Shown here: in pieces, positions 3,766-37,274 of the stretch | Numbering within the stretch: the stretch's first letter is position 1 | Layout: each line of letters starts with the position of its first letter | Assembly (NCBI GenBank): GCA_964016885.1 | Contig: OZ024743.1 | Span: 275,404,001-275,468,000 of the forward strand | Source of the DNA: Eledone cirrhosa | Lineage: Eukaryota | Length of the DNA stretch: 64,000 nucleotides | Reading direction: 5' to 3' | Position numbers and translations under genes: made by a program | Notes under the pieces: generated by a model | Database searches by the model: none | What the model saw: the letters and a program-made list of their open reading frames with translations, nothing else | What the model was told of the DNA's origin: nothing

Positions 3766-3930
3766 AACTTGAAAGATAACTTTTGGAACTTTGTCTTTTA
3801 TAAGTTCATTTTTATCTTTGGAGTGATGAATGTGCAGACAATGAATGAAGTTATCAGCTGGGTCACCTGGTTCACTGTCCTTGGATTTCTAAATCTGCAC
3901 ACCCAGCTTTGTAAGGATAGATTTGAATAT
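3766..3930 (+). CDS. AMFR: AMFR/gp78 internal coding exon A (transmembrane region), NLKDNFWNFVFYKFIFIFG...LCKDRFEY
   Basis: ttttcag acceptor at 3764-65 and gtgagt donor at 3931; 165 nt, phase 0/0; closely resembles vertebrate AMFR LKDKFWNFIFYKFIFIFGV...QLCKDRFEY as recalled. Confidence 0.95.
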
Positions 3931-4711
3931 GTGAGTAATCTTCACAATCATTTTACAATTCTTCATATTTTAGCTATATATTCCTTTTCCTTAGGAGCAT
4001 TGGCAAAAGCCTTTCTGTAATTTTGTGGTTGGCGTTAGGAAGGGCGTCTGGCTGTAGAAAACCAGTCCCAAAACACCCAGCCCACACTGTAAAGTGGATG
4101 TATAAAAGACACGGCAAAAAGCACCCAGCACACACTGTCAATGTGGTTGGCATCAGAAAGGGCATCCAGCCATAGAAAACCAGCCAGAAACTCTCCTATA
4201 TGAGCGAGACACGGTCACCCGACCCAACTTGCCTATAAATGGGACAAACCCGTCTAACCCTTGCTAGCGTGGAAGATAGACAGTAATCAATGATGATGAT
4301 CATATGTATATATTTGTGTGTGTGTGTGTGGATACAAGGATACACACACTTACCTAGCAAATGCAGGGTTTGATTCTTACTGGCTCTCCTGTCTGATAGT
4401 TTCTTTTGCATCTCCAGCAGTATTTTACCTGAATTATTATTCAACTCTTATTTATAATTATCTGCATTGTGGCAGCTTATGGAAAGGAAAAGCAAGCTTA
4501 TTTTCAAATGTGTCTACATTCTGTAATGTCCATCAGCACTGTACTAGGTAGGTAAATTGACCTTTCCAAGCCAAATTACGTAGTGTCTTCTAACATTACC
4601 TAATTTCTGTGAATGGTGGTTCCAGTCGGACTACCGTTGGCAAATTGGAATTGAAGAAGCATACACTGATTCGGGAACCTGGAAATTTCAATTTCCTACC
4701 CACACAAAGTC

Positions 4712-4880
4712 ATTTGACTCCTACCTGTCCTGATGCTTTTATAATCTTAGCAACAATATCTGACAGTCCTGCAGTTTTACCATTCTTCATCTTTTTGATT
4801 GTTTCTTTGACCCTGAAATTGTCAACTTCAATAGCTGGTCCTTCCTTTGAGTAAGTTGGGGTTAGTTTCTCTTCCCCAAA
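4712..4880 (-). mobile_element. Short RTE-LINE ORF2 fragment
   Basis: EGPAIEVD...MKNGKTAGLSDIVAKIIKASG, homologous to the copy at 40116-40496. Confidence 0.75.
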
Positions 4881-5058
4881 CTTACTTAAATTAATGAGTG
4901 AATGAGGATATGACTGAAGCTGTGTCAATTTTATTTGACAAGCTTTGTTTTTTAGTTATATGGCTGACTGAATACAAACATGCTTTTTCTCAAAAAAAAA
5001 TTTTTTTATTCTTTCCTTTTCTCACTCTTTATTTTCTTATTTCATCTTTTATTTCTCA

Positions 5059-5100
5059 TTCTATTTTCTAATGAAGGACTAATGTCCGAAACGTAAAGAA
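5059..5100 (+). ncRNA. Degenerate minimal type I hammerhead ribozyme, Penelope-pLTR-like
   Basis: CTAATGA (one substitution from CTGATGA), A, GGAC-TAAT-GTCC stem II, GAAAC-GTA with palindromic ACGT stem III, then AAGAA able to pair with the upstream ttct/tttt. Confidence 0.6.
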
Positions 5101-5599
5101 TCTCTTCCTACTATATCAAGTGTTAAACTAATATATTTCTTCATTATACTGTGTTGTTTGTTTTGTTGTTTTCCTTTTATTTTTTGTATTCATATGTGTG
5201 TGTGTGTGTGTGTGTGTGTGCGCGTATATATATGTGTGTACGTATATATATATATGTGTGTACGTATATATATATATGTGTGTATGTATGTATGTATAAC
5301 TTGTATTTGCTTAGCTCCTCATCTTTTTATATTAAGACTAGTTGTGAAACTGCTGATGTTTTTGTCCTTCATAAAGAGCCTGTTTTTCCAGCTCAGTGGT
5401 TTGTTGTAGATCCCTAGCTAAAATGATGTACAAGTGAGACATGATCCCCTGGTTTTTTCTTTGTAGGTTCTGAATAAGAATAAATTAGTCCATGACAACC
5501 CATAATAGCTTGATTTGAAATAATTACTTAATGTAATGATTTAGCAGAAAATGTCTAAAAGTGTTCTTTTTTAATTCAAATGTTTATAGTATCTTTACT

Positions 5600-7240
5600 G
5601 GTAGGCAGAGGGTTGTGAAACTTTGCATCTCCAAATGCAGGAGTTGATGTCTCATCTGGTGGTGAAGCAATTGTGTAAGTGTTTCAGCCCCTTCTACCAT
5701 GACACCAGAGCTATTTGGTGCCACCCACTGATGTATGTTTTGAAGCTCCTGCACAATCTTAGATGAGTCTAATATTGTGACACTGTCCACCTCAATGCAT
5801 CAGAACAGCATGAAATTCAATGAGTCTAATGTTGTGACTTTGAGCAAGACATGGCCATCCACTTCAATGTGTCAAGGACACCTTTTCTCTTTTCTTTTGA
5901 GCCAGATGTAGTGAGTTGGTTTCTCAGCTGCCTCTGATAATGCCCTTGAAATGCGTTTCCTTTCCTTTGCCGCCAGTTCAAGGTTCTTGAGCAGCGAGTC
6001 AACCTTGATTTTGACAAATCCTGTGACCTCAAATAGCTCTGGTGTCACATTGAAGGGAGCTAAAACACATACAGAGTTACTTCACTGCCTATTTCTGATC
6101 CACAGGTTTCAACCAGCTCACTGTACTTCCTGGCCTTCCTGCTCAATTCATCATCAATGTTTGTCTCTCTTGAGACAGTAAGCTCCACCATCTTTACCAC
6201 CTTCCTTTCTTGCACCACAAGATGGGGTCGAGTCTTTTGGTGGTAAAAAGGGGAAAGTGGTATTTGCCATCCAGGTCAAATGAGATATCCCAAATCCCTC
6301 CAATATTAGGTCAGTCTTCTTTCTTATAGTGACTGGCTTGCTGTGTTCTTTTTCATTATAAAACTTTATCCTGTTCTTCTGCACTAGTTGTGGTCTCTTG
6401 CTGCTGTTCACCCTCTTCACCCTCTTCCAAATCAGCCAGTACTCTAAGCAGTTGGTTATGCTGCTATATGTATCTTGCTCTGCAGGTCTACTGGGCAACT
6501 AGATAGTATGTGCTTCATCCTTTCAGCCTTTCTACATTTGCAGAGGTCATACTCATCTACTTTCCAGTGTTTTAGGTTTGTGGGGCTAGGAAGCATGTCA
6601 GACGGAGTAAAGCAAAAAATTGATTCTGGCCGCTTCCCATGACCAAAGCTCCTGACATCCTATCTCCTGCTTAACCAGAAGCTTCTCCCAAGATATGGTC
6701 CCTGTTGGCCACATTTTATCAAGGGTGCATAGCAACTTCTTACTTCCTTCTTTTTTACCTGGTTGACTACCATGGCCCTTCTCTCCTGATTCATGGCACA
6801 ATTTGGTCTGGATTAGGAAGTTCTAAGACCCTTTCTATTGCTCTATGCAGGACTTACTATATTTTTATATCCCAGAGATGACAAAAAATACTCCTTCACT
6901 TCTGTTTTCTTCCAGTCATAAGTCCCAGTGAGGAGGAACATGATATGATCATTTAGATGACATAGTCAGTATGGTCTGCACCTTATCACACTTGTATTGC
7001 TTGATTATTGTTGGATAGGTTGGACCACCATTGTTGCACATGGCAAAGGTTTGTGGCAATCCTAGCCAATTGCAAATGTAGATATTGCATTTTCACTCAA
7101 TGGTCTTGACACATGGTAGTGCAACTTCACACAATATCGGTGTCCATTGCAGTCTGGGGTACAGTGCAAACTACATGCACCAGAGCTGGGAACATGCCAG
7201 GTAGTAATGTTCTATCACTGAAAGCCCATCCTCGGCCATC
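5600..7240 (-). mobile_element. Decayed, 5'-truncated non-LTR retrotransposon with restriction-like endonuclease (HERO/NeSL-like)
   Basis: minus-strand translation across frameshifts: WLGLPQTF; INFLLYSV-DMLPSPTNLKHW; C-K-C...HILSSC knuckle; HNQLLRVLA; VELTVSRETN..RKARKYSEL; EVTGF; LSEAAEKPTHYIWLKRKE with stop at 5872. Confidence 0.8.
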
Positions 7241-8264
7241 ATCTGGATTTTAAGTACCTTATTTCTATCATTGAGTGACCTATAATACATCAATACAGTG
7301 AGTAAACATCATTAAAAACTGAGAAAAGTCCTGAAATATTAGTATTTGGTATTCTCTCATGGCTATGGGACATGACCATAGTTTAAAATACTCTGTGAGA
7401 CTTAGTATGTTTATTATAAACAGGTATATGCTTTTATATATGCCTCTATTAAAGTGTTTTGTTTCAATGCTATAGTGTACTAGAGAATATATCTATAGAT
7501 TTTTAGCCAATGCTGTATATATATATGGACAGATGCAACTAGTCTGTTGTTGCTGATAAAATCCCAACATAGGATTCTATTGAAATTATTTTGGCAGAGC
7601 CTTCTTTTTCTAACTATAAAGATATACTATACACAGACGAGGTGTATACATCTGTCTTTGCATACAGTAGTGGTTAGAAATCTATAGATATTCTATAGCA
7701 ATGAAACCTTGTATTGTTCTTCAACTGACTGAAAGAAAATTTCTCTATACATTTTAATGTAGTTGTACTGACAAATGAATCAGCTCATTGTAATGTGACC
7801 TAATGGTCTTTTATAATGTTTTAACTCAAAGCAACGCAGATGTAGTATTTATACATTAGATATGAAATGTAATTGATTTTCTTAAAGTGACTTAGAATAA
7901 TTAACATGGGACTTTCTCAATTTAAAATGACTCTATTTTAGTTTTATTAATCTATAAAATTCTATAGCCATCTGGATTCTTGGTAGTAAACAGCTTCCAA
8001 TTATGCTCTGGTTGTGGTTCAACAGTAAGTTAGCAGCTTTAATTTGATCTTGTTAGAGTATATTTTTTTTAATAATTTCATCAGTGTTTTCTGTTGTTCT
8101 ACGATACCACCCATCTCTCCATAGCTAAACTTGTTGATGACACTTCAGAACTTTACTGACTACTCAAGTAGTTTACAAACCGGTTTTGTTAGTTTTTCTA
8201 AGGGAAATGTTTTCTTATAGAATGCTGTCATTCATTTTGTATGTGTGTGAAAAATAAAATCTGT

Positions 8265-10430
8265 CATCATCATCATCGTTTAGCGTCCATCTTCCACGCT
8301 AGCATGGGTTAGATGGTTTTGTCCCATTTGATGCGGGAATGGTCGGGAGATCATGTCCTGCTCACAGGGAAGCGTCTCTGGCAGGTTTTTTTACAGCTGG
8401 ATGCCCTTTCTAACACCAACCACATTTACAGTGTGGACTGGGAGCCTTTTCACCGTGTCTTCTACAAGGGCACCTTACAGTGTGGACTGTTGTGTCATCG
8501 ACACAGTGGACGGAATGGGAGAGGGAGGATGCAGTAGGGTGTGGTGGTGGGGTGTGCATTGGATTAAGAGGTGCCTACTGACTAGGTTTGTATGCAATGG
8601 TAGTCGTGTCTTCTGTACAACTGCACGGCGCCAAAGATCTCGATCCAGTCTCATTGTCTTAGAGAGGTGTAGGTGGGCAAGGTCAGTTTTTATCACTTCG
8701 TCCCAGGTTTTTCTTGATCTACCCACTCTGCAGCTTCCATCAATTTTCATTGCCCTGCACTTTTTTATACAGCTGTCATCCTTCATACACATCACATGTC
8801 CATACCAACGCAATCTCCTCTCCAGAACACAACATTTGATACCTCTTATGCTTAGTCCCCCTCTTAGTTCGTTTATGCTTCGCCTTTCGCGCACATTACT
8901 ATTACACTTCCATTGGAGCATGCAAGCTTCATTTCTTTCTAATCTATGCAGGTCTTCAGCACACAATGCCCAAGTCTCACTACCATGTAATATCGCTGTT
9001 CGTATACATGCATCATACAATCTGCCTTTCATTTTTAGAGAAAAACCCTTTGTGGCCAACAGCGGTATTAGCTCTCTGAACTTTTTCCATCCCATTCAAA
9101 CTCTGGCTACTACACTTTCAGAGCACCCTCCTCCACTGCTGATTTTGTCACCCAGGTAATGGAAGGTGTCTACTATTTCTATAGAACCATCTGGGCAGTT
9201 GAAGAAGATTTCATCCAGTGGGTCCTTGCTACTTACTGCACCTGAGCATCGGCCACATATAAAATCTACATTCTTAGATAGCTTACCTCTGATCCCACTA
9301 CATCTTTTATGTACCCATAGTTTGCATTTGGGACATAGAATGAAGTTTCTGCCTACTTCTTTCTTACACACTGAACATGGCCATTTCCCAGAGGATAATT
9401 GTGCCCTATTCTCTTTTTTGCATACTAGAACCTTAGTCTTAGACAAGTTGACTCTAAGGCCTTTTGATTCAAGACCATGTTTCCATGTTTGCAACTTCCT
9501 CTCTAGTTCAGCCATAGATTCAGCTATGAGAGTTAGATCATCTGCATATAGAAGTTCCCATGAGCAGCCAGTCTTAAACCCCTCTGTTATAGCCTGTAGG
9601 ACAATAATAAACAGCATGCTAGCATGGAAGATAGACGTTAAACGATGATGATGATGAGGGGGCTAAGAACGGAGCCCTCGTGAACCCCTACCATTACGCT
9701 AAATTCATCACTGTATTCTTCGTTAATTCTGACCTTGCTGACTGTCCCTCTATACATGGCTTGTATAGCTCTCACAAGCCATTCTTCTACTCCTAGTTTT
9801 CTAAGAGCCCACCAGATTAAGGTGCGTGCGTGGGACTCTGTCAAAGGCCTTCTCCAGGTCAAAAAAAGCTAAGTAGAGGGGTTTACTGTTAGCCAGGTAC
9901 TTCTGCAATTTCCGTACAAGGAAAAGAACATCCGTGGTACTTTTACCTGTCACAAACCCAAACTGCATTTCATCTAGATCAATTTGGTCTCTAATCAGTT
10001 GAGTAATAACTTTCTGTGACTTTCATGATTTGGTCAACTAATTTAATACCTCCTATAGTTTCCTCTATCCAGGGCGTCTCCTTTGCCCTTGTAACAGTTG
10101 ATGATGATGATGATGATGCTACACCAGTCATTTGGTATGACCCCATTCTGTATTACTTGGTTTACTATCCGGGTGACCATAGTATGTCCCACCATTCCAG
10201 ACCTTCAACAGTTCAACAACTATCCCTGAAGGCCCAGTTGCCTTGCCTGTCTTTATATTTTTGATTGCTTTACTTACTACACTACCATCAACTTTCACAG
10301 CTGATCCTTCTATTGGATCGATGTGGGGCAGACTATCTTTATTCCATTCATTCTCCACATTCAGTAGTCTTTCGTAGTGACACTTCCAAGCTACCTTCTT
10401 ATCACTATCAGTGAGGGCAAGTACACCAAA
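8265..10430 (-). mobile_element. 5'-truncated, disabled RTE-clade LINE with (GAT)n tail
   Basis: DLEKAFDR, LLYADDL, Cys/His finger, RLRWYGHV; tail tcatcatcatc at 8265; stops and frameshifts. Confidence 0.93.
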
Positions 10431-11859
10431 TTACTTTCCAGTTAGTTTGGTATTCCATCACTTAATCACCCCTTCATTCCTGTTCTTTTTTTTATTAGGC
10501 TTAATGCCCAGTAAGTGAAACAAAAGTTGGGGGGGGGGGGGGGGTAGTTCGGTTAGAGTACACATATCTGCAGAGAAACATGACAAAATTCAACTGAAGT
10601 TGTGTGAATGTATAAATTCATACACTGACAAATATAAACATGTCTTTCTTATTTATTTCTATGAGGACTGAAAGAAAGTGAACACTCTGACATGAGACTG
10701 TGTATATATCTCTCAGTCCAGAGAAAGATGTGACCAATAGCTTTCTCTTCAAAAAAAGACAGTATAGGTCACTTTTGAGCACAAATAGTAATATGTAACC
10801 CAGTATGGCATGTTGCATGGTTGGGTCATTAGTGACTAAACCACCAACACTTGCAAGCTTACTTGGTGATGAGAGTGATTTTTGGACACTCTGCAGTATG
10901 AAATAAAAAAAACCTGTCAAAAGGCGGAGGAAATCGGGAGAATCAATGGCCTTCCAATAAAGTATGTACATATGTATATATTTTTCTTTTTTATGTGCAA
11001 AGACATTGGTAGCAGGATGTTGGATGTGATCAGTGGTGAAATCTAATAAACCAGAGCTTTAGCATTGTATCACAAAGGCGTCATGCAAATGATCCAGTAT
11101 GTTAGACAATGGATGAGTTCTAAACATTCCAATTAGATGGATACTGCAAGAACACATAGAGTAGCGCTTTGTGTTTTCCACTACTTGCACAACCAAAACC
11201 CCCTACAAGGGGGTGTCCAACTGGATGGAGGATAGGATAAAGAGAATTTTTCAGTCTAGTTGAGCATATGACAACCTCGTTACACTGTTTGTGTAATGAT
11301 AAAATGCACCTAGAACACTCTGTAAAATGACAGGGCTGGTGCCACAATAAGATGCACCTGGTATACTCTGTAAAGAGGTTAGTATTAGGAAGAACATCCA
11401 ATTATAGAAACCATGCCAAAGATGAGGTCCCTCTTACCTGCCTAGTCTCTGACCATGACAACTCCTCCAACCTATGCCAACATGGAAAGCAGATGTAAAA
11501 TGATAATGAGGAATGGTTTTAAAAGCCCACCAAATATGATAGTATCAGAAAACTGGATCTTCCAGCTTGCATAATAGTTGTGCTATACTGGTAGTTGAGA
11601 GGTTGACTTTATCCACTTAATTATTGTGAATAATTCTAGAATGAATACAGATTTTGTTTTGGTTAGGAGAAAGTTGAAATGACCTGCCATTTCCAGTGAT
11701 AATAGAGATTATATTATGACAACTGAAAACAAAGTTGAACATTTTATTCCTTGATGTAGTGAATTCTTAATGTTTGTTTTAATGGTTGGATTTTTTAAAA
11801 TTTTATTAGAATACTGAGATAGCAACTCTGTGAAAGTACTAGATTCTTTGACCCTATAT

Positions 11860-12053
11860 AATAATTGTTTCTACTTTTGGCACAAGGCCAGCAATTACCT
11901 AGTACATTACTGGTACTTTATTTTATCGACCCCCGTAAGGATGAAAAGCAAAGTTGACCTCGGCGGGATTTGATCTCAGAATAGAAAGGGCCGTAACCCT
12001 ATGCGTCAAAGCATGACGTCCGACCCTCTACTGATACTGCCAATCCACCGCTC
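11860..12053 (-). mobile_element. tRNA-derived SINE of the same family
   Basis: reverse complement of the 21492 copy; flanked by repeated ctatataataat / tttgaccctatat. Confidence 0.88.
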
Positions 12054-12415
12054 TATATAATAATGCTTATAATTATATAATATTTGACCCTATATCATAA
12101 TGCTTACTCAAATTTCTAAAATATATTTTTATCTGGCCTAAATCCACTTTAGAAACTGTTTGGACACATTAGTTTCTAGTAACTAGGTACATATGCTAAA
12201 ATCTAATCACACGTTAAATTGTGTTAACATGCAATTAAGTTAGCTCTACCAATCCATCATATCATCATCATCATCGTTTAACATCTATCTTCCACGCTAG
12301 CATGGGTTTAGGCGGGAATTGTCCCACTTGAGGCAAGATTGGTCGTCTCGCTCGTACATTTCAATAATGGACATTGTTTGTAGGGTGGGGTGGGTGGGGT
12401 ATTACACACCATTAA

Positions 12416-12657
12416 CACTTTAGTTACCAAACTGCCTGAAACCACCTATGGTTTTGTGATGTAAAACTTTTTTTTTTTAAGTGTTTATGTTTATCCCAAA
12501 ACTTTCCATCATAATTATATGTAAGAACATTTGTTAAGTTATGTTCCAAACACCAGCTTAATAACGAGAAAGTTATTACTAAATCTCTCCAGATTTTTGA
12601 TTATTTAAAAAATTATTTAAAAGTCTGTCTCCCATTAGAAATATGGTTATGAAAGGG
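12416..12657. mobile_element. TTAA-type MITE, inverted relative of 56018-56247
   Basis: ttaacactttagttaccaaactgcctgaaacca ... attagaaatatggttatgaaaggg. Confidence 0.7.
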
Positions 12658-12860
12658 TTGCCCTTATAGTGTCATTAGTTTCTGCTAAAACTTTTTTAGT
12701 CTATTTTATCATTCATATATATATATGTATGTGTGTGTTATTCAGTTTTTTTTGTTTTTATTTTATTACTGGAGGTGGAACCAAAATGAACACTCAATGC
12801 TATAACAACGTATATATCATATATGGGATAACAAAGTTTCACTTTAAAATGTTTTATTTG

Positions 12861-13183
12861 CATATCAAACGTTACATATGTTTCACAGATGATTGGCCCG
12901 AGGACTTTATTGATATGATAGACCGGAATCCAGTATAGATCTGCTCATCAAACTTGATGACTCAAATCAAAACATTCTCAAAGGATTAAGCCCGACTCAA
13001 TATGGCCACACATTGGCCGGACAACTTGTCAACAGGAAACTGGCTATATTGAGTTGTTTAATCATTTCCATATGTTTTGATTTGAGTCTACCTATCTGAT
13101 GAGGAGATCACTACTAGGTCTATCACATCAATAAAGATCTTGAGCCAATCATCTGTGAAACTTTATCTCATAAATGATATATG
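12861..13183. ncRNA. Rod-like imperfect palindrome with opposed hammerhead-ribozyme cores
   Basis: nested complementary blocks such as gtttcacagatgattggc/gccaatcatctgtgaaac and gactcaaatcaaaacat/atgttttgatttgagtc; minus strand TTGATGA-GCAGAT..ATCTGT-GAAAC-ATAT-GTA; plus strand CTGATGA-GGAGAT..ATCTGT-GAAAC. Confidence 0.7.
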
Positions 13184-15714
13184 TATATGATTTTCACAGT
13201 TATTGTGAGTAGTAGCAGTTAGAATTATTTGAAAAAGTTACATTCAAAACACTTAGAAGATTTAGATGTTGAATGAGAAAAGATAATACCGATAGACTAA
13301 TGTTATTTGTATTGTAGTGGTGTGTGTGTGATCTCAAATAGATACTCTTTTGAAGGGCAGGAAGGGGGAATGAATGCTATGTTACACACAATGGGCTTCT
13401 ACACAGTTTATGTCTACCAAATATCAGTCAAAGAGCATTGGTCAGCCTAAGGCTGTAGTGGAAATCACTTACCCAAGGTGTCATGCAGTGCAACCAAACC
13501 TGAAAACGTGGTTGCAAAGTGAACTTCTTGTTCACACAGCAATGCCTGCAGCTGTTCCTCATATTCATTATTGATGCATAATTGATTTGATTTCTATATG
13601 GAAGTTGGAAGCACTTATTAGCTGCGTTGATTTTCTAAACTCAGATCCTGAAAATAAGACTTTTATCTCGAGTAATAACTTGATAGATAGTTGTTGTTGT
13701 TATCTAATTGTTAGCTCTCATTGAGCAGCCCGATGGCAAGGAGTGAGAGCATACATTTGTTTAACAGTAGCTTACAGACTGGTCTACCAGTTGGCTATAC
13801 TCTATAGTTTACATTGTGGCCACTTAGTATGCACTTTCTATTGCAATGTTTGGTATCTAAGTAGATTGTTGATTTACTTGATATAATTAAAGTGTCTTGG
13901 TTATTTACAGTAGAATGTATGATTTTAGTAAGATGCAGGCATGGCTGTAGGGTCGGAAGCTCGCCTCACAGACATAATTTGGTGGTTGTTCCCACTGTAT
14001 GGCACTTTGGGCAGGTACCCCCTATTTTAGCTTTGGGCCAACCAATGCCTAGTAGGTGAATTTGTTAGGTGGAAACTGGGAGGAACCCCATCACACACAC
14101 ACGCACATCTGATATCATTATCTGAACAGCGGATTAGCAAAACCATTTTGAGTTCAAATCGTATCTAGGTCAATTTTACCTTTCATCTGTCCTGTATTAA
14201 AAGTAAATACCAATTATGAATTCAAGTCCCATCAAGGTCAACTTTGTTTTCATCCTTCCTGGGTTAATCAAATAAAGTAGTGGTCAAATATGAGGGGTAG
14301 GGGTGATTTAATCACTAATCCTTCCCCTTAAATTGTCCTTATTAGAAAGGATGTTTTTTTTTAGAGCTATAACTCCAGGTGAAGTTGTAGGAGCATTGTA
14401 GTGACATAACAGCATTTCTTGAGCATTTTAAACCTGGCACAGCCTATCTCTTTCCAGGGATGAACACAACCAATTTCTTCCAGAGAACGAGAGAGAGAGT
14501 GATAGTGAGGAAGTGAGAAAGAGATATGGAGGAACAGTCAACTCCAGTACTGGAATGATATTTTTTTTATCAACCCCAAAAGAATTAAAAGCAAAGTTAG
14601 CCTCAGTGTCTTTTGAACCCAAACTGCAGAGGGCTGGAATATATATTGCAAAGCATTCTACCCAATGTTCTAACAGCTCTGTTAGTTTTCTGCCTTTGTG
14701 ATAAAGGATTATTTTGATTGATAGTATTTTCAGTTTATTCTTTGTTATTCAAGAATAATATTTCATTAAAATATAAAAGAAAAAGAATATTTTCTTTGTC
14801 TTTGTTTAACCTCTTTGTATCTGAAAACAGATTTGTGTCACCATTATAACTATTTTTAGCTATTATTTATAATTTATTTTTTTGTTTCTTGTGAAGCCTT
14901 AGATCAGCCCTGATAAAACAGACATGATCAAAAGTTTATCAGTGGTGCCCTCTGCCCAATATCTAACAGTACCTTTATTTTGTTAAGATAGTGGGATATA
15001 TTTTGAGGCTGATTTAGGTGTTATTTCCAGCAAGTTGAGTGACTATGCAGAGGTTCATGTTTTGTTTTGTTTGTCTAAAAAGCTATTTTGAATAGAGTAT
15101 GATTTTGTTTCACAGTTAACTACTAAAGCAGTGAAGTCAGAATACTGGGAATGGATCTGTTTCAAAACTATTAAGTGTTGCACAAGGCCCAGTCACAATG
15201 GTTGACTTATATTATCCTTGTATCTTCACTTCACAGTAATTAATTCTCTCTCTCTCACACACTCTCTCTCTCTCTCTTTCTCTAGATATCTCTTCTGATG
15301 TAGCTTTATGGTTATACTAAAATACATATAGTCAGGTAACCATGTTTTACTCATAGATTCTGTATTTGGTATTAAACCAAGCTCCAAATGGAATGAGCAT
15401 GACCTGGTTACCTGACTAGTCTAGGCTCAGAATGTGACAACCTGTCTAACCCATGTGAGCGTGGAAAATAGATGTTAAACGGTGATGATGATGATGATAA
15501 TAATATACAATTTTACTCATGCATTGTTTCCTCAATTTGTGCAAGCAAATGTATATATACATACATGTATATATATTGTTGACTTATAAAGCATTGAGAA
15601 ATTTGAAAATATGGTCACCACAATGTATACAACCTCATTTACCAGAAGTACTTACTCAGTTTATTCATGTTATCAAATATTATAGTTATCTACATTGTGA
15701 TGACCATATATCGT

Positions 15715-16020
15715 TATCATCATCATCATTTTATGTCTGCTTTTCCTTGCTTGCAAGGGTGGGGCGGGTCCTCTTCAACACAGCATCTCTCCATTCGTCA
15801 CGGTCCTTCGTCATCTCTTCTGTGAGCTTCAGCGATCTAAGGACAGCTCTCACCAATTCCACCCATGTTTTCCGTGGTCTTCCTCTACTGCGTCTTCCTT
15901 CCACAGGGATTTCTTGGCACTTCTTCACCCAGCGGTCATCATCCATGCGCATACCAACACAGTCTTCTCTCCTGCATACTACAGTTGATTCCTCTTATAC
16001 ACAGTTTCACTCTCAACTCT
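15715..16020 (-). mobile_element. RTE 3' fragment of the short-tail subfamily
   Basis: GRPRKTW...KRTRPTLASKEKQT* running directly into (GAT)n. Confidence 0.88.
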
Positions 16021-16189
16021 GTGTGAATGTGTATATAAAAGGGTAAAATCTCTCTTAGGTCACGAATGACCTTGGGATTTGCAGCTAGAAAGTTTCCCTT
16101 CTGAGGCACATATCTGGTTTGTGGAAGACCAGCTATCGTCCATTCATACCAGTCTCCCCTCTCCATGCCACTGATGTTGTCTAAGGGAA

Positions 16190-16356
16190 AGGCAAAGGTT
16201 GATACAGCTTGGCCCCAGTGACTCATTTCTACAGCTGAGTGTGCTGGAACATGAAATAAAGTGTTGTTCAAGAACACAACACATTGCCCAGTCCCGGGAA
16301 TTCAACTCACAACCTCATGTTTGTCAATCTGACACTCTAACCACTAAGCCATGTGC

Positions 16357-16358
<2 letters not shown>
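16190..16358 (-). mobile_element. Second tRNA-derived SINE family (relatives at ~3210-3325 +, 33570-33800 -, 48290-48560 +, 56860-56960 -)
   Basis: minus strand ggcacatggcttagtggttagagtg...gagttgaattccc...gttcttgaacaacactttatttca. Confidence 0.7.
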
Positions 16359-16398
<40 letters not shown>

Positions 16399-16404
16399 AA
16401 ATAA

Positions 16405-16652
16405 AAAAAACACAGTCCACGCTGTAAATGTGACCGTGTAGGCAACACGGTAAAAACCTCCCAGCCCCACACTGTAAATGTGGTTGGTGTTAGGAAGGGC
16501 ATCCAACTGTAGAAAACCTGCCAGACAGTCCTATGCGAGCAAGACAACCACTCTTGCCTCAAGTGGGAAAACTCCCGTCCAAACCCATGCAAGCATGGAA
16601 CACGGACGTTAAACGATGATGATGATGATGATGAGGAGGATGATGATGATGA

Positions 16653-16695
<43 letters not shown>

Positions 16696-16860
16696 AAAAA
16701 ATGCACAGACATCTGCTTTTCCATGCTTGCATGGGTTGGACACTGATCTTTTTCAGCACAGCATCTCTCCACTCGTCGTGATCCTTTGTTCTTATTCTAG
16801 CTGCTACGCTCCTGGTACACCCTCCTTCACAGGTAACTAGGTCACCTAGAAAGAAGAAGC
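16405..16860. mobile_element. Tail-to-tail pair of RTE 3' ends separated by (GAT)n and (TA)n
   Basis: + strand 3' UTR 16405-16655 ending in (GAT)n; - strand tail and ORF pieces 16705-16860. Confidence 0.75.
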
Positions 16861-17231
16861 TTATCAACTGCTTCTTTGGATCCAACCTCGGATTAAAAAA
16901 GGTGCATATCACTGATACTCTTACTATCAGTTTTCCCTGAACATATAATACATACAAAGTTTTCTTTTCCCCTGCCTGCTATTTCACTATACCTTTTGTG
17001 TACCAAGAAAATATGGTCACTACAAAGCAAATAACTATACAACCCCATTAACATCTTCATTTAACATATATGTACATATTTTCAACTTGTACTGTCTGTT
17101 TATGTCCTACAACTTGCAATTTGAAGGGTGAAAATCAGTAGAATAAGCACCATACTTAGAAATAAGATGATGATGATGTTGACATACACGTTATATGTTT
17201 ACATTGATGTGTGTATATATATATATTACAG

Positions 17232-17384
17232 CTTTCCTTCTCTCCTGGTACTGCTCGATGGGTTCATGTCAAACTACTTACTCTTCTTGGTGTGATTTTC
17301 TGTTCCTGCATGGGTCTTCTTGTTATCTCAGGATTTGTTGGGATGCAAGCTGGATTTACCATATTTGCATTTATGGCAGCAGAG
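17232..17384 (+). CDS. AMFR: AMFR exon B, LSFSPGTARWVHVKLL...FAFMAAE
   Basis: tacag acceptor and gtttgt donor; 153 nt, phase 0/0; continues RFEY|LSFSP and ends in AFMAAE as in AMFR. Confidence 0.93.
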
Positions 17385-19770: not shown

Positions 19771-20054
19771 GTAAGTACAATCCCTTTTCTTTTTTCACTA
19801 TATGTCATAATTAATAATTGTCATAGACTAAGTGTATAGGATCTGATGTTTCATGTCTCTGAACTGTGTTGTCATTGCAAAAACATTTAATTCCATGGCT
19901 TGGTTCATCTAGCTGTAAATAGATACCATTATGCATCTTGTATTGTTTACAACAAATAGTACTAGTATCTTGTTCTGGCTGAAAACATACATAAACAACC
20001 ACATGTGGCTTAAATTGCATTTGAGCAAAGTGTGGTATTTATGCTACTGTAATA

Positions 20055-21488
20055 ACATTAGCTGTATGGCCAAACTGATGGAATCCTGTGTCAGAGAAAC
20101 ACTTTGGAACTTCTGGAGCTCTCACAGCCTCATCCGGCCCTCGCAGTTTGGATTTATCCCTAACTCCAGCTGCTGTGATCAGCTTATCGAGTTCCTTGAA
20201 GACATCACCCGGATCACTGACAGCGGCTCATGGGTGGATGTTGTTTACCTTGACTTTGCTAAGGCTTTTAATTCTGTGCCACACAAAAGACTTATGGCAA
20301 AACTCTCTGCAATGGGTGTGAGGGATGATCTTTTTGGACTGGTTGAAATCCTTCATTCTCAGCCGAAAAGAGGTAGTCACGGTTCTAGGACAGCATTCTT
20401 CACCATATGAGATGTCATCTGGTGTACCACAGGGATCTGTTCTTGGTCCCCTTTTGTTTGTGGCATATATTAATGACATAGATGCCAACTTAAAGAATGC
20501 CATGGTACTGAAATATGCAGATGACATCAAGCTGTACCTTGAAATCAAAAGGACTGATCCTGAAATCTACAACTCTTTCCTACAATCAGACCTGGACACA
20601 ATGCAGCAATGGATCACAGACTGGCAACTGAAGCTGGCTGTGGACAAGTGTACCACCATGCATTTTCGGAGGAAAAATCCAGCGTTCACAAACTCCCTCC
20701 ACAACACTGATATCAAGAAGTCCTCTTGTGAACGTGACCTGGGCATTACTGTCAGCAGCGATTTGCGTTGGACAAAGCATGTCTCTAAGATTGTCAAGAA
20801 GGCCAAGGGTGTCTTGGCATCACTCAGCAAGACCTTTGTTAGCCGCTCTCCAGCCATCTATTTAAAACTGAATACAGCTATGGTACGACCACACTTGGAA
20901 TTCACATCATCAGTCTGGAACCCCTATCTTGCTCAGAACATTGACCGCCTGGAAACTGTTCAGAGACGTGCAACCAAGCGCGTACCCTTCATCAGACACC
21001 TACCATACTATGAACGCCTTGCTTCCCTGGGTATGGATTCATTGAAGCTCCGACATCTGGCAATGGACTTGGTAAACACCCACAAAGTTATTAACCATCT
21101 CGCCAACAACAACCCTGAGCACCTTTTTTATCTCCATGTGTCTAACACACGTGGACATGCCTACAAAATCAGAAAACAGCACAGCTCCCATGACTTTCGT
21201 AAACATTTTTTCACGCTCAGAGTTGCTGAAGCATGGAACAAACTGCCTGCGTCAGTTGTTAGCTGCTGAGACACTGCATCCTTTAAAACACTCATGGTTC
21301 CCGAAATACGCCAAAACTACACCTGATGTACCCCTTCCATACACATGCACACATGTGTATATCATGACTCATGCACTGTTCATTTTCCTGACGTTTGTAC
21401 ATTACCCTATGTACTATACATACACTTTTTGATGAGTTGTAGTGCACCTGAGCACTGTACACAATATTTCATTATTATTATTATTATA
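20055..21488 (+). mobile_element. 5'-truncated CR1-clade LINE with a frameshift near 20330 and an (ATT)n tail
   Basis: QFGF, YLDFAKAFNSVPH, SGVPQGSVLGPLLF, YADD, VRPHLE, QRRATK, TRGH, WNKLP motifs. Confidence 0.93.
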
Positions 21489-23760: not shown

Positions 23761-25057
23761 TTACTAGCATATCTGAAAAATTTGAGAATCATTAGATATT
23801 GACATGAGTGTTTTTATTTATCTAAAAAAAAAAACGGGTTATGCTATATAGTTTATCTAAATACTTCCACTAAGTCGTGAATTGGTAGAGTTTTTAGAGA
23901 AACAAAATGCTTTGTAGTATTTGTTCTGACTCTGCACTCTAAGTTCAAATCCTGCCAAGATCAACTTTGTCCTTTCATCCTTAAAATAAAATATCAGTTC
24001 TGTCAATCTAGCTTTCATCAACATCACTGTTTAATGTCCATTTCCCATGCTAGCATGGGTTAGATAGGTTGTCCAATTGTGAGACAGGTCAGGTCATAAC
24101 TGTGTCTTGCTCAGATAGAACTGTTTCTGGCTTGATTTCTACAGCTGGATCCTCTTCATAATGCCAACCTAATTTACAATGTGGTCTGGATGCTTTTTAT
24201 CGTGGCATCAAAAGACCACTTTTCAGTGCGGACTGGGCACTTTTTGTTGTGACAAAATTGTTTCTACTTTTGGCACAAGGCCAGCTTGTGACAAAATAAT
24301 AGTGAAAAAAAAAGAAAAAAATTTTTGTTCTTGTTATTATTTTTATTTATCTAAGCTCCAAAAGAGCCAAGATAATTGAGCAGAGAGAATTTGTATTAAA
24401 TTTGGTTTGATTTTGGCAAAACTATGAAATTAATAGTGACAGTAGTTCTGTTAGAATAACAATATCTAAGGTTATATTAGTGATTATTATCTCTTAGTAT
24501 TTATGCCATAGTTTAGGTAGTGAATTGGTAGACTTGATAGACAATTAGATTAAATGCTTTAGTATTTGTTCAGGCTCTCTGCAGTCTCAGTTAAAATCCC
24601 ACCAAGGTCAACTTTGCCTTTCATCCTTTTGAGGTCAATAAATAAAGTACCAGTCTAAGGTTGATGGATTGGCAGAATTGTTTAAAAAATGTCTAACAGG
24701 ATGTCTGTTTTGAGTTCAAACTTAGTTGTGGTGACAAGGAGATAGTGTCAGCAATGAAAAGTTTCCTTTGACAATCTGGTGATCAATCAGTTCCTTGGTA
24801 GGACACAGAGCAAAAAAAATTTAAGAACCACTAGTCTAGGTTTTATGTTCATTTATATAGTCAACACAGTTTTGGGGTCAAGTTAACTCTTGTATGAAGC
24901 GTTCAATGTTTGCTAACTAATGAGAGTTAAGAGGTTTCAGCATGTTCTTAACTATTTTACCCATGAGCTAGTGTTTAAAATCTTGTAAAAATCATTTCAG
25001 TATAGCTACAAGAAGTCTTTTCATGTTAAGTCTGCTAAGAACTAATTAAACATTTCA

Positions 25058-28000
25058 TTACTCCGAGTTGGTACCATCAATGTAAGCACAATGAAAGGAA
25101 GAGCAGGAGAAATCGTAGAAATGCTAGAGCGAAAGGAAATTGATGTATGCTGTGTGCAAGAGACTAGATGGAGAGGAGAGTCTGCTAGAGTCCTTGTAGG
25201 AAAAAGTCAGTGCTACAAATTTTTCTGGGTGGGAAATGACGATGGGATGGGTGGTGTAAGTATACTACCAGCTGACAAGTGGGTAGATAAAGTAATCTCA
25301 GTGTACAGAGTAAATGCAAGAATCATTAAACTCAGACTAGTCCTGAATAAAACAATTACCACAATAATATCAGCTTACGCACCCCAATCGGGGTTGCCAG
25401 ACGAACTTAAGGATAGATTTTACGAGTCCCTAATACACACTACTGCTCTAACAAACGACAACGACTTCCTAATCATCGCAGGAGATTTTAACGGACACGT
25501 AGGTAAACACTGACGGCTTCAATAGAGTCCACGGAGGCCATGGGGTTGGCACAAGAAATGAAGAAGGATTCAGACTTCTATAATTCTGCAACGCCAATGA
25601 CATGTCGATATGTAACACAAACTTCAAAAAACCCGACAACCACCTGATCACCTATAGATCAGGGGAGCATTCTAGTCAGATAGATTTTATCCTCATCAGA
25701 GGACGTGACAGATGGACGGTCGTAAACACAAAAGCCTTCCCTAGTGAGGAATGTACCTCCCAACATAGCTTAGTTGTCAGCGACCTCACGATCAGAACTA
25801 GACGAACCTGGAAACAGAGGCCAACCTGGAGAAGAAAGATCTGGAAGCTGAAAGACCCCTCAACCAGTAACAGATTTAAAGATATTTTACTTAACGCCTA
25901 CGACAGTAGAGAAGAACAGATAGACATTCAATGTAGAAGAGCACTGGGAGTTCCTAAAAATAACTTACTAGAGGCGACGGATGAGGTCTGTGGCTGGAGT
26001 AAGACCACACGCAGGAGGAGAGTGACTTGGTGGTGGAACAATAAGGTAGATGAGGCAATTAAGACCAAGAGACAGACATGGAAAGAATGGAAGAACGGGG
26101 GGAGCAGGGTACATTACATAGAGACCAAGAAGGAAGCTAGGCGACATGTATACTTAGCTAGGAGGGAAGCAGAAGATAGAAAATTCAAGCATGTTTTGCA
26201 ACGTGAGGCACCAGAAACAGATGTTCAAGATTGCGAGGCAGTGTGTCAGAGAGAATTGTGATGTCATTGGAGAGAAGTGTATCCGGAATGATAAAGGTGA
26301 TCTTGCCCTCACAAGTGCTGAGAAGAAAGATGCATGGAAGAGTCATTATGATAGATTACTAAATGAGGAGAATGCATGGGAAGAAGAGACCCTACCCCAA
26401 GTAGACCCTATAGAGGGGCCAGCAGTACAAGTCAGCAGCAGCGTAGTAAGTAAGGCAATCAAAGATATGAAGATGGGGAAGGCAACCAGTCCATCGGGTA
26501 TAGCTGCCGAGATGCTGAAGGCATCTGGGTCTGTAGGTCACACTATAACCACACGTATTGTTAACCAGGTAATACTAGAAGGTGTCATACCAAAAGATTG
26601 GTGCAGTAGCATCATTGTCAACTGCTACAAAGGTAAAGGTGATGCACTCGATAGAGGAAACTAGAGGTATAAAGCTGATGGACCAGGTCATGAAAGTAAC
26701 AGAAAGAGTTATAGCACAGTTGATTAGGAACCGGGTGAAACTAGATGAGATGCAATTTGGGTTTGTAACAGGAAGAGGCACCACTGATGCCCTCTTCCTT
26801 GTGAGGCAGTTACAGGAAAAGTACCTAGCTAAAAGTAAGCCACTCTACCTGGCATTCGTCAATCTCGAGAAAGCCTTTGACAGAGTTCCATGTGCTGTAA
26901 TCTGGTGGGCTCTTAGAAAACTAGGAGTATATGAATGACTTGTGAAAGCTGTACAAGCCATGTATAGGGGAGCAGTCAGCAAAGTTAGGATTAGCAATTA
27001 GTATAGCGAGGAATTTAGCGTACAGGTTGGTGCCCACCAGGGCTCTGTTCTTAGCCCTCTCCTGTTCACCATAGTCCTGCAGGCAATAACGGAGGAGTTT
27101 AAGACCGGGTGCCCATGGGAACTCCTGTATGCTGATGACCTCACACTTATAGCTGAATCTATGCTAGAACTAGAGAAGAAATTCCAAACTTGGAAGCAGG
27201 GACTAGAAAGAAAGGGTCTCAAAGTCAACATGACAAAGACTAAGGTCCTTGTAAGTAGACGAGAAAACAGAACCCAGATCCCCTCAGGGAAATGGCCTTG
27301 CTCAGTATGTCGGAAAGGTGTAGGTAGGAACTCCATTCTCTGCCCCAAATGCAAACAATGGGTACACAAGAGATGTAGCGGGATCTCAGGAAGTTTAATT
27401 AAGAATGTAGGCTTCACATGCAGCAGCTGTGCTGGGACAGCAAGCAGCAAACAGCCACAGGAAACAAGCACCACCAATCTCTGGGAGGGCTCTGTAGAGA
27501 CAGTAGACAGCTTCTGCTACCTAGGTGACCGAATTAGCAGCGGAGGTGGGTGTTCAGAAAGTACAATAACTAGGGTAAGAATGGGATGGAAGAAGTTCAG
27601 GGAACTACTGCCACTGCTAGCTGCAAAAGGGTTCTCCCTCAAAATGAAAGGCAGACTGTATAATGCCTGTATCCGAACAGCAATGTTGCATGGTAGTGAG
27701 ATCTGGGCGCTGAAGGTGGAAGACTTACGTAGATTAGAGAGAAACGAAGCCTGCATGCTACGATGGATGTGTAATAGTAATATACGCGAACGACAAAGCA
27801 TAAATGAATTGAGAGAGAGACTGAGCATAAGAGGAATCAAATGCTGTGTGCAGGAGATACGGTTGCATTGGTATGGACATGTGATGCGTATGAAGGATGA
27901 CAGCTGCATAAAAAGGTGCAGAGCACTAGAAGTCAATGGAAACCGCGAAGTGGGGAGACCCAAGATGACCTGGGATGAGGTAATAAAAGCCGACCTTACC

Positions 28001-28385
28001 CAATTACACCTCTCAAGGGCGATGACACACGGCCGTGACCTCTGGCGTCACGCAGTAATACAGAGTACCCGACCTCCCATGGATACAAGCTGAAGCATAT
28101 AGACAATATGCCCCCACACCCTCACTGCAAGGTGGTCGTGGAGGTACCACGGCAAAAAAGCACCCAGCCCACACTGTAAAGTGGACGTGTAGGCGCCACA
28201 AAAAGCACCCAGCATTCACTGTAAATGAGGTTGGTGTTAGGAAGGGCATCCAGCTGTAGAAATCAAGCCAAATCAGTTCCTGTATGAGCAAGGCATGGTC
28301 AGCCGACCAGACAGTGCCCACAACAGGACAACCCGTCTAACCCATGCTAGCGTGGCAGAACGGACGTAAAACGGTGATGATGATT
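25058..28385 (+). mobile_element. Near-complete but disabled RTE-clade LINE ORF (APE endonuclease, RT, PHD-type finger)
   Basis: GTINV, VQETRW, SAYAPQ, AGDFNGHVG, SQIDFIL (APE); MQFGF, LEKAFDRVP, HQGSVLSPLLF, LLYADDL (RT); several in-frame stops and frameshifts; (GAT)n tail. Confidence 0.95.
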
Positions 28386-34253: not shown

Positions 34254-36797
34254 ATCATCATCATCATCATCATCGTTTAACGTCCATATTCCACGGTTGC
34301 ATGGGTTTGGACGGGAGTTTTCCCACTTGAGGCAAGAGTGGTTGTCTTGCTCGCATAGGACTGTCTGGCAGGTTTTCTACAGTTGGATGCCCTTCCTAAC
34401 ACCAACCAAATTTACAGTGTGGGTCTGGGAGGTTTTTACCGTGTTACCTACACGGCCACATTACAGCGTGGACTGTGTGTTTTTTTGTCATGACACCTAC
34501 ACGACCTCATTTGTTTCGGGCTGGATGTTGTGGTACCAACATAACTTTACATTGAAAGGGGTGGGGGTAGTGGGACGGGGGTGTATTTTGTTAGAGGTGC
34601 CTACTGACTGTAGTAGGTTTCACTTTGGACTTAGGTAAGGCGGGTCTTCTCTATTACTGTGTAGCGCCAAAGATCTCGGTCCAGTGACATTGTCTTGGAG
34701 AGGTGTGTGTGAGGTCGTCCCAGGTTTTTCTGAGTCTGCCTACTCCGTGGCTACCGTCTATTTTTATTGCCCTGCACTTTTTTATGCAGCTGTCGTCTTT
34801 CATGCGCATCATGTGACCATACCAACGTAGTCTTCTCTCGAGTAAACATCTGATCCCTCTTATTTCTAATTTTTTCCTTAGTTCGTTTATGCTTTGCCGT
34901 TCACGTATATTACTATTACACATCCAGCAGAGCATGCAAGCTTTGTTCCTCTCCAGTCTGCGTATATCCTCTGCACACAATGCCCAGGTCTCACTGCCAT
35001 GCAACATTGCTGTTCGTATGCAGGCATCATACAGCCTGCCTTTCATTTTTAGGGAGAACCCTTTAGCGGCTAATAGTGGTATAAGCTCTCTGAACTTTTT
35101 CCATCCAGTTCTGACTCTAGCTACTGTACTTTCAGAGCACCCTCCTCCACTGCTGATTTTGTCACCCAGGTAACGGAAGGTGTCCACTATTTCTATAGAA
35201 CCATCTGTGCAATGTATTCTCTGGGCACTTGCTGCTACTTATTGCACCAGAGCACCGGCCACATATAAAATCTATGTTCTTAGTTAGCTTACCTGTGATC
35301 CCACTACATCTTTTATTCACCCATACTTTGCATTTGGGACATAAAATGGAGTTTCTACCTACTCCTTTCCTACACACTGAGCATGGCTATATCCTGGATG
35401 GGACCGGCGCCCTATTTTCCTTCCTACAAACTAGAACTTTAGTCTTAGACAAGTTAACTTTAAGGCCTTTTGATTCTAGGCCATGCTTCCATGTTTGGAA
35501 TTTCTTCTCTAGTTCGGCCATTGATTCAGCTATGAGCGTTAGATCATCTGCGTATAGGAGTTCCCATGGGCAGCCGGTCTTGAACTCCACTGTTATAGCC
35601 TGAAGGGCAATAATAAATAGTAGGGGGCTAAGAACGGAGCCCTGATGAACACCAACTTTTACGCTAAACTCTTCACTATATTCGTTGTTAATTCTAACCT
35701 TGCTGACTATTTCTTTATACATGGCTTGTATAGTTCTCACAAGCCATTCATCAACACCTAGTTTTCTAAGAGCCCACCAGATAATGGAACGGAGGACTCT
35801 GTCGAAGGCTTTCTCCAAGTCAACAAAAGCTAAGTATAGGGGTTTACTTTTAGCTAGGTACTTCTCCTGTAGTTGTCGTACAATGAAAAGAGCGTCTGTG
35901 GTACTTTTACCTGACACAAACCCGAACTGCATTTCATCTAGATCAATTCTCTCTCTGATTAGTTGCGCTATTACTTTTTCTGTGACCTTCATGACCTGGT
36001 TGATTAATTTAATGCCTCTATAGTTACTCCTATCTAGGGCATCTCCTTTACCCTTGTAGCAGTTAATGATGATGCTGCTACGCTTGTCCTTCGGAACAAC
36101 CCCATTCTGTATGACTTGGTTTACTATCCGGGTGACCATGGTGTGTCCCACCGTTCCAGAAGCTTTCAGCATTTCAGCAACTATTTCCGAAGGCCCAGCC
36201 GCCTTACCCGTCTTCATGTCTTTGATTGCCTTACTTATTATACTACCTTCGACTAACACTGTTGGTCCCTCTATTGGGTTGATGTGGGGGAGACTGTCTT
36301 TCTCCCATTTATTCTCCTCATTTAGTAGCCTTTCGTAGTGACACTTCCAAGCTACCTTCTTATCAGCGTCAGTGATGGCAAGTACACCATCATCATTCAG
36401 GACACACTTCTCCCTGACAATATCACGGTTTTCCTTGACACATTGCCTAGCAATCCTGAACACCTCACGTTTTTGGTCCTCGTATTGTAGAACATACTTG
36501 AACTTTCTTTCCTCTGCTTCCCTTCTTGCGAAGTACACTTGTCTCCTAGCTTCCCTCCTGGCCACTTGATAGTCTTCTCTACTTCCCTCATCCCGCCATA
36601 CTTTCCAAGCCTGCTTTTTGGCCTTAATTGACTCCTCCACCTTACTGTTCCACCACCATGTTACTCTCCTCCTGCCTATAGGCCTGCTCCAGCCACAGAC
36701 TTCGTCTGCCACCATCAGCAGGTTTGCTTTCAGGAATTCCCACTGTTCCTCTATATTGTACGACTCTAAATGCTCTTCCTTACTGTCGAAAGCATCA
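34254..36797 (-). mobile_element. 5'-truncated RTE-clade LINE
   Basis: 442-aa ORF 35387-36715 with RT motifs, frameshifted C-terminal pieces, and tail at 34254. Confidence 0.95.
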
Positions 36798-37274
36798 AGC
36801 TAGTGTTACAAAAAACATACCCAGCCACTGTAAGGTGGTTGGTGTTAGGAAGTGCCTCTAGCCGTAGAAACCATGCCAAATATGGAACATAATGAGCAAC
36901 ATTGGCCTCAGACTGTGACAACCCATCCAATTCCTGCGAGCATGGAAAGGGGACGTAACATGATGATGATATACATAGATACTATGGACTTTTCCATCAA
37001 CCAAATTCACTCACAAGGTGTTGGTTGATTCATACTGTGGTAGAAGACACTCACTCAAAGTATCAGACAGTGGGGTAGATAGAATCTGAAGCCATGTAGT
37101 TGTGAATCAAAATTCTTAATCACACCACCATGCCTGTATCTATGTGTAAATATAATTGAATTTTTTAAAATTGAAGGTAGATTCAGTTATTTGAAATTAA
37201 GTTTTTAATTGAAAATAGGAAAATGTAGTTAGCTTTCTTTTTGAAGCATGTATTTCTGTTTTTTTTTTCTTTAG

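Follow-up and report, generated by a model that had tools for sequence, protein, structure and literature searches.

The window, by which we mean the whole 64-kb stretch of DNA analysed here, carries on its plus strand an AMFR/gp78-like gene, and, as the initial annotation had recognized, a rod-forming segment of approximately 320 nt lies inside one of the introns of this gene, which is 13.3 kb in length (Table 1). The exons flanking this intron (3766-3930 and 17232-17384) have clean splice sites and open frames, and exons further downstream match PF25563 and the RING families of Pfam, as well as AMFR in the PDB (E 4e-9). Pfam and PDB searches with the two flanking exons themselves gave no informative match, and these are presumably AMFR exons, as judged from exon order and from what is known of human AMFR. 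The introns of the gene also contain remnants of LINE-type reverse transcriptases (RTs) at 9099-9662, 19919-21266, 25046-28090, 35390-36799, 39356-40141 and 42019-42948, in three of which the RT is followed by a PHD finger. A very high-copy short repeat flanks the rod in inverted orientation at 11858-12052 and 14213-14279, the two occurrences being ~2.3 kb apart.

The region from 12850 to 13195 folds as a rod on both the plus and the minus strand (-145.0 and -145.8 kcal/mol), with z-scores of -15.2 and -13.4 on the two strands, and 0 of 100 shuffles folded equally well. The paired blocks and apex hairpins described in the initial annotation are found in place; the extent which it gave to the rod, 12861-13183, lies inside the feature as delineated here, and the full feature is larger, spanning 12731-13187. 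The alternation of stems and loops is what is expected from two diverged inverted copies of one sequence. A chimeric assembly can be ruled out, given that the arms differ by 17% and that a short-read contig (runs X1 and X2) spans both of them; this contig shows 0 differences over 12868-14437 and comes from one sample, which is possibly the source of the assembly and is not independent of it. The site is barely covered by the RAD-seq runs X4 and X5.

Table 1. Features of the rod and its host intron, with positions counted within the window
Feature	Positions	Strand	Basis
Host intron, AMFR/gp78-like E3 ligase gene	3931..17231	+	Splice sites, open frames, downstream exon matches
Optional 3' tail of left copy, short form, decayed, ending in (TA)/(TG) microsatellite	12731..12810	-	Tail profile match (L131 1360-1439); BLAST to L016, L020, L021
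Left core copy, ~25 nt 5'-truncated, 9.6% diverged from column majority (non-CpG)	12806..12980	-	nhmmer, L001 1631-1457
Type I hammerhead motif of left copy	12869..12955	-	Descriptor match, pair check
Central spacer X, outside the repeat core	12980..13047	+	Sequence comparison with L013 and L019
Initial ~30 nt of X repeated in inverted orientation, forming the rod's inner stem	13041..13071	-	Alignment; inverted repeats I1 and I15
Right core copy, tail-less, with two deletions	13072..13187	+	Pairwise alignments to L006 and to the left arm

A dispersed repeat family accounts for both arms

Both arms of the rod belong to one dispersed repeat, which we term family A. Querying the genome of the same organism with the rod returned 383 candidates, and nearly all of the 40 that were scored match a single arm only. 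A 20-mer of the core has 65 exact matches in the genome as against 0 for the reversed control, and it is kept in 7 of 51 independently drawn copies, from which a family size of ~470 copies (range 250-1140) can be estimated. The family searches yielded 131 loci that collapse to 95 places, 91 of which have a core match, with 128 copies altogether; a pattern-drawn sample, obtained from the first 30 of the 65 matches to the 20-mer, comprises 28 places including that in the window. A (TA)n run located ~55 nt upstream of the hammerhead core marks the start of the unit, whose family core spans ~190 nt, with copies ending either there or after an optional tail of 70-140 nt. The 5' and 3' ends, as read by eye from the flanks, lie mostly in TA/CA microsatellites; these are all that the flanks show, and a fixed target duplication was not seen at the copies. 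A profile of the tail matches at 15 of the 28 pattern-drawn places, on one arm.

The median divergence of the copies from the column majority is 12.6% at non-CpG sites (4.5-25%, 101 copies). Columns at the 7 CpG sites of the family alignment are kept at 56% as against 80-87% elsewhere, and this strong CpG decay suggests that the repeats were once methylated. No paper naming the family was found in the literature searched, and it may already be catalogued in repeat libraries such as Repbase and Dfam.

Two other short repeats were encountered in the same genome. The first of these, family B, with 1589 candidates, displays a core resembling a compact type I hammerhead, together with (TA)n flanks and an optional tail, and is arranged head-to-head in 12 of 40 places (L162-L191, core near 1500-1580; for example, L157:1130-1260 and L188). 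The second, family C, is young; its head-to-head arms are nearly perfect, and it too has a tail and (TA)n flanks (L036:1090-1330, L075:400-660, L189, L191 and others); CUGANGA was not seen in the copies examined, all of which are truncated. A hairpin-capable tail motif, ACTCTRCTA...ATTGAGTRC, is common to families A (L065:1490-1520), B (L170, L188) and C (L075:548-600), although the cores of the three families look unrelated.

The hammerhead motifs of the two arms

The type I hammerhead motif that had been proposed on the minus strand is indeed present in the left copy, with TTGATGA at 12951-12945, a 6-bp stem II, GAAA at 12884-12881, the palindromic ACATATGT of stem III, and a GUA triplet after which cleavage is predicted, between 12873 and 12872. 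The type I descriptor written for this analysis matches nowhere else on either strand of the entire window, the plus strand having no match at all; run on 20000 shuffled versions of the left copy, it matches 5. The C3U change in the core is likewise borne out by a U at 12951, where C is the family letter in 70 of 87 cases, and this U3 stands opposite G8. Stem II closes a long hairpin and stem I forms 3 of its 4 pairs, with the supposed bulge in the latter being instead a mismatch caused by decay (A-G here versus C-G in the family). The left copy keeps the full predicted motif of the family except for C3 and one stem I pair. The pairing probability of its stem II is 0.02 when folded alone and 0.00 within the rod.

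The plus-strand hammerhead of the initial annotation is not confirmed: CTGATGA (13096-13102) and GAAAC (13157-13161) are present in the right copy, and stem III and the cleavage triplet are missing. Alignment to other copies reveals that 47 nt have been deleted after 13161, between direct repeats of GTGAAAC, and with them stem III, the triplet for cleavage and the 3' strand of stem I. A further 6 nt are deleted in stem II. The "tc" cleavage site and the acctat/ataaat stem I that had been put forward for this strand are downstream sequence of the element moved up by the 47-nt deletion, and the differing stem I sequences of the two arms, previously taken to argue against a simple recent inverted duplication, are products of decay and deletion rather than of two distinct ribozymes. 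A loose motif scan found the 47-nt deletion at none of the others among the 95 family places. Of the two predicted ribozymes at this locus, only the left one retains a cutting site.

The putative family hammerhead

Across the family, column majorities spell out CTGATGA and GAAA and, for the stems, a 6-bp stem II, the palindromic ACATATGT as stem III and a 4-bp stem I that is extended distally; the cleavage triplet is GUA. Stem II continues into a ~60-nt hairpin, and the first pair of this stem (10.1-11.1) is G-U in 63 of 84 copies, unlike the conserved G-C that passages of PMC4209133 report at this position in the hammerheads of Penelope-like elements (PLEs). The strict descriptor is passed by 5 of 76 family copies, and on their antisense strand it is matched by 0 of 76. 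This restriction of the core to one strand across the family implies a single ribozyme in the family, copied twice at the locus in the window, where one of the two copies is dead.

The assignment of the family motif as a putative hammerhead rests on motif order and complementarity, and several results speak against a ribozyme. Rfam searches at E values up to 5 returned 0 matches in 11500-14500, and those at the 8 loci with the best copies returned 89 matches with no hammerhead, all of them below the gathering score and mostly to microsatellites. RNAalifold predicted 0 pairs for a consensus of 28 copies, and two-sided changes in the stems occur almost only at CpG sites. Core columns are slightly better kept than the others (A/T: 0.90 versus 0.87, p 0.064; G/C: 0.86 versus 0.80, p 0.041), in searches which themselves favour core letters, and the core letters are intact in 21 of 76 copies as compared to the 26% expected from independent decay. 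There is no case for selection on the core, as the count of intact cores fits independent decay and the searches are biased toward core letters.

Head-to-head pairs and alternative origins

Two cores with facing 5' ends are found at 30 of the 91 places. The pattern-drawn sample contains 14 such core-core pairs among its 28 places, or 17 head-to-head places when tail-only partners are counted. Pair counts in both sets are biased upward because paired places could be drawn twice and one search used the tail. Adjacent same-strand tandem pairs occur at 0 of the 28 pattern-drawn places, and among the 91 places only partial same-strand neighbours are seen (L048, L051 and L148). At 61 of the 91 places there is no core-core pair, and copies with a single arm are thus no rarer than pairs. 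The position of the junction differs between the 30 pairs, and 7 of 11 other long pairs, hand-picked for their long arms, fold with a stronger z than the -16.9 of the pair in the window (12 shuffles each).

These observations bear on the alternative that the initial annotation had offered of a fold-back MITE derived from a Penelope element. The Penelope hallmarks are retained, as discussed below; the MITE-like unit is not, in view of how many copies have one arm only, and a head-to-head retro-insertion takes its place. A derivative of a DNA transposon, in which the arms are terminal inverted repeats, would explain the inverted arms around a short spacer, but most places have a single arm, the inner junctions vary, the tail lies on one arm, and the flanks are microsatellites with no fixed target duplication. 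We therefore see next to no likelihood of such an origin.

The principal suggestion of the initial annotation was a viroid-like RNA with ribozymes in both polarities. In the form considered here, a viroid-like or retroviroid RNA that self-cleaves through hammerheads in both polarities and replicates by a symmetric rolling circle would have been copied into the genome. The locus does resemble the Avsunviroidae and the retroviroid CarSV in its length, its rod-like fold on both strands and the presence of CTGATGA and GAAA on both strands; CarSV, as described in part of PMC12382478, is a genome-integrated example with both polarities on record, and both arms at our locus would have had the full motif before the deletion. 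In contrast to these agents, the two motifs are paralogous copies of one duplicated repeat, of which the plus copy has no cleavage site, and the rod-like fold itself follows from the inversion of that repeat. Furthermore, the motif is confined to one strand of the family, the unit composed of the centre and its arms has no second copy in the genome searches that were run, the tandem, same-polarity multimers that the initial annotation had suggested looking for are absent from the 28 pattern-drawn places, and the junctions of the 30 pairs are scattered over many different positions. Together with the many places that have no core-core pair, this already largely refutes a viroid-like RNA at the DNA level, and we consider it exceedingly improbable. 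Two of these findings, the motif on one strand of the family only and the many copies with one arm, are among the outcomes that the initial annotation had itself named as refuting its reading.

A third possibility is a dispersed non-LTR retrozyme that moved via hammerhead-cut circular RNA monomers, with the inverted pairs arising as a side product, which partly overlaps the explanation favoured below. The unit of 200-340 nt, low in GC, non-coding and bearing a type I motif with a palindromic stem III, fits the account in the relevant passages of PMC7229834, and family A resembles the animal non-LTR retrozymes treated there and in part of a 2026 preprint (10.64898/2026.07.22.740005) in being short, AT-rich, non-coding and non-autonomous with one type I hammerhead per unit. 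The same part of the preprint argues that animal retrozymes derive from the pseudo-LTRs (pLTRs) of PLEs. Nevertheless, the tandem head-to-tail units that define retrozymes are found at 0 of the 28 pattern-drawn places, with inverted pairs being seen instead of tandem arrays, the ends of copies do not fall at the cleavage site, and the copies are old and decayed. A retrozyme in this sense appears unlikely.

The relationship between the arms and the spacer raises a further alternative. Over 90 columns the two arms in the window show 83% identity, as against a median of 79% in background comparisons, 20% of which are as high, and they share 1 derived change out of 8 and 6, respectively. The arms are therefore about as old as the family, in agreement with the statement in the initial annotation that they do not stem from a simple recent inverted duplication. 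The palindrome, however, extends ~30 nt into spacer X with an identical junction to the repeat in both arms, which makes the arms look like the outcome of one event. Spacer X shows 76% identity over 68 nt to a stretch upstream of the copy in L013, which is itself related to one in L019; genome searches with the versions from the window, L013 and L019 matched only themselves, and X is absent from the family B loci. At 92 nt, the spacer in the window is the widest of the 30 pairs, the others ranging from -16 to 32 nt.

A local fold-back could have followed the insertion, with a single copy and its flank being duplicated in inverted orientation by an error of replication or repair rather than by retrotransposition. 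The entry of the palindrome into a non-element spacer, joined to the two arms at an identical position, and the short TGGCYAT homology at the switch point speak for this process. However, head-to-head pairs are far too frequent for random repair, both here and in family B, and the tail on one arm conforms to the pattern of the other pairs. Moreover, with only 1 shared derived change, any duplication would have to be about as old as the insertion. We accord this process a small probability.

The search for an autonomous parent

Candidate PLEs with a GIY-YIG endonuclease abound in the genome: a protein search with an endonuclease remnant from L071 yielded 5818 and Pfam PF01541 yielded 10596, many of them in head-to-head pairs. 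The repeat core is present in 0 of 30 loci of a young PLE and in 0 of 30 Pfam GIY-YIG loci; in the search of the former, a 72% match to the tail came from the self locus, L074. As none of these 60 loci, out of thousands of candidates, carries the core, an autonomous parent was not identified among them. On the minus strand of L071 (1774-2118) a GIY-YIG remnant is followed within ~150 nt by a weak 72% match to the family tail, this being the sole hint of an autonomous link. PLE remnants near 5 of the 95 family places were considered as a parent and rejected, as they have their own ends, and their proximity is attributed to common (TA)n targets. Beyond the end of the tail no common sequence was found across copies, except for one unrelated common repeat. 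The young, high-copy PLE (L077-L103) encodes an 887-aa open frame with a C-terminal GIY-YIG domain and is present in many near-identical copies, often head-to-head; its 3' end contains a hammerhead-like variant, TTGATGG...GAAA.

A probable Penelope-like inverted insertion

The rod represents two decayed head-to-head copies of one dispersed repeat, and we consider it highly probable that both arose when a non-autonomous Penelope-like retroelement inserted once, in inverted form, from a template that bore one type I hammerhead. A Penelope-type RT with a GIY-YIG endonuclease, acting in trans, would have cut a (TA)n target, and the RNA would have been copied twice, once per strand, from two start points, one with and one without the tail. 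Truncation at the 5' end and joining at short homologies may have occurred during insertion, and the presence of ~30 nt of X in both arms could reflect either one rearranged template or a fold-back at insertion. The "two polarities" of the locus therefore stand for one and the same ribozyme.

Several properties of PLEs are in line with such an insertion. According to passages of PMC8557442, it is common for a PLE insertion to have a 5'-truncated copy in inverted orientation directly at its 5' end, to carry a tail on just one of its ends and to target (TA)n, and the head-to-head inverted truncated copy, one-end tail and (TA)n targets of family A resemble these pseudo-LTR insertions. The PLE hammerheads described in parts of PMC4209133 combine a long helix II with a short helix I and a helix III that is small and palindromic, are low in activity and occur mostly as solo copies, with minimal hammerheads also found in opposite-strand pairs 100-700 bp apart; the type I motif of family A shares this combination of helices, and its many dispersed solo motifs and its opposite-strand pairs within a few hundred bases are likewise comparable. 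Excerpts of PMC11167929 further show that a PLE protein cuts and extends both strands, that two internal RT start sites define the PLE tail, and that hammerhead cleavage is unnecessary for insertion in vitro. The passage of PMC6962438 that concerns squid counts hammerhead-1 matches in its genome and goes no further. Family A differs from known PLEs in that no RT/GIY-YIG ORF was found linked to it, in that its stem II closes a ~60-nt hairpin starting with G-U, and in that its tail of 70-140 nt is longer than the published 30-40 bp; the pair in the window is additionally distinguished by its 92-nt foreign spacer.

Implications

As a ribozyme the locus would now be inert, because the host pre-mRNA reads the strand of the deleted copy. 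On either strand, moreover, each motif lies downstream of its own complement, and the rod would therefore sequester it. The likeliest present effect of the rod is an intronic double-stranded RNA of ~300 nt. The single locus matters little, being a decayed scar of a retroelement, and the repeat family is best described as a new family of a known kind, a real structure of ordinary origin.

Since head-to-head insertions of Penelope type give rise to rods in which each strand bears a hammerhead core, and such rods would pass the filters used in searches for viroid-like RNAs, a warning is in order for those searches. The dozens of inversion junctions in family A, along with its two defined 3' ends, could help in testing how PLEs insert in inverted form. 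We also note, as a tentative proposal that is more doubtful than the origin of the rod itself, that at least three otherwise dissimilar (TA)n-targeting families share the head-to-head-plus-tail layout and the tail hairpin ACTCTRCTA...ATTGAGTRC, and that this hairpin might be a signal for in-trans mobilization by one Penelope-type RT, with the founder of family A possibly having had a type I hammerhead that was unusual in its ~60-nt stem II with a closing G-U. The tail motif common to the three families, the most promising lead that is left, provides a testable candidate for an RT recognition signal.
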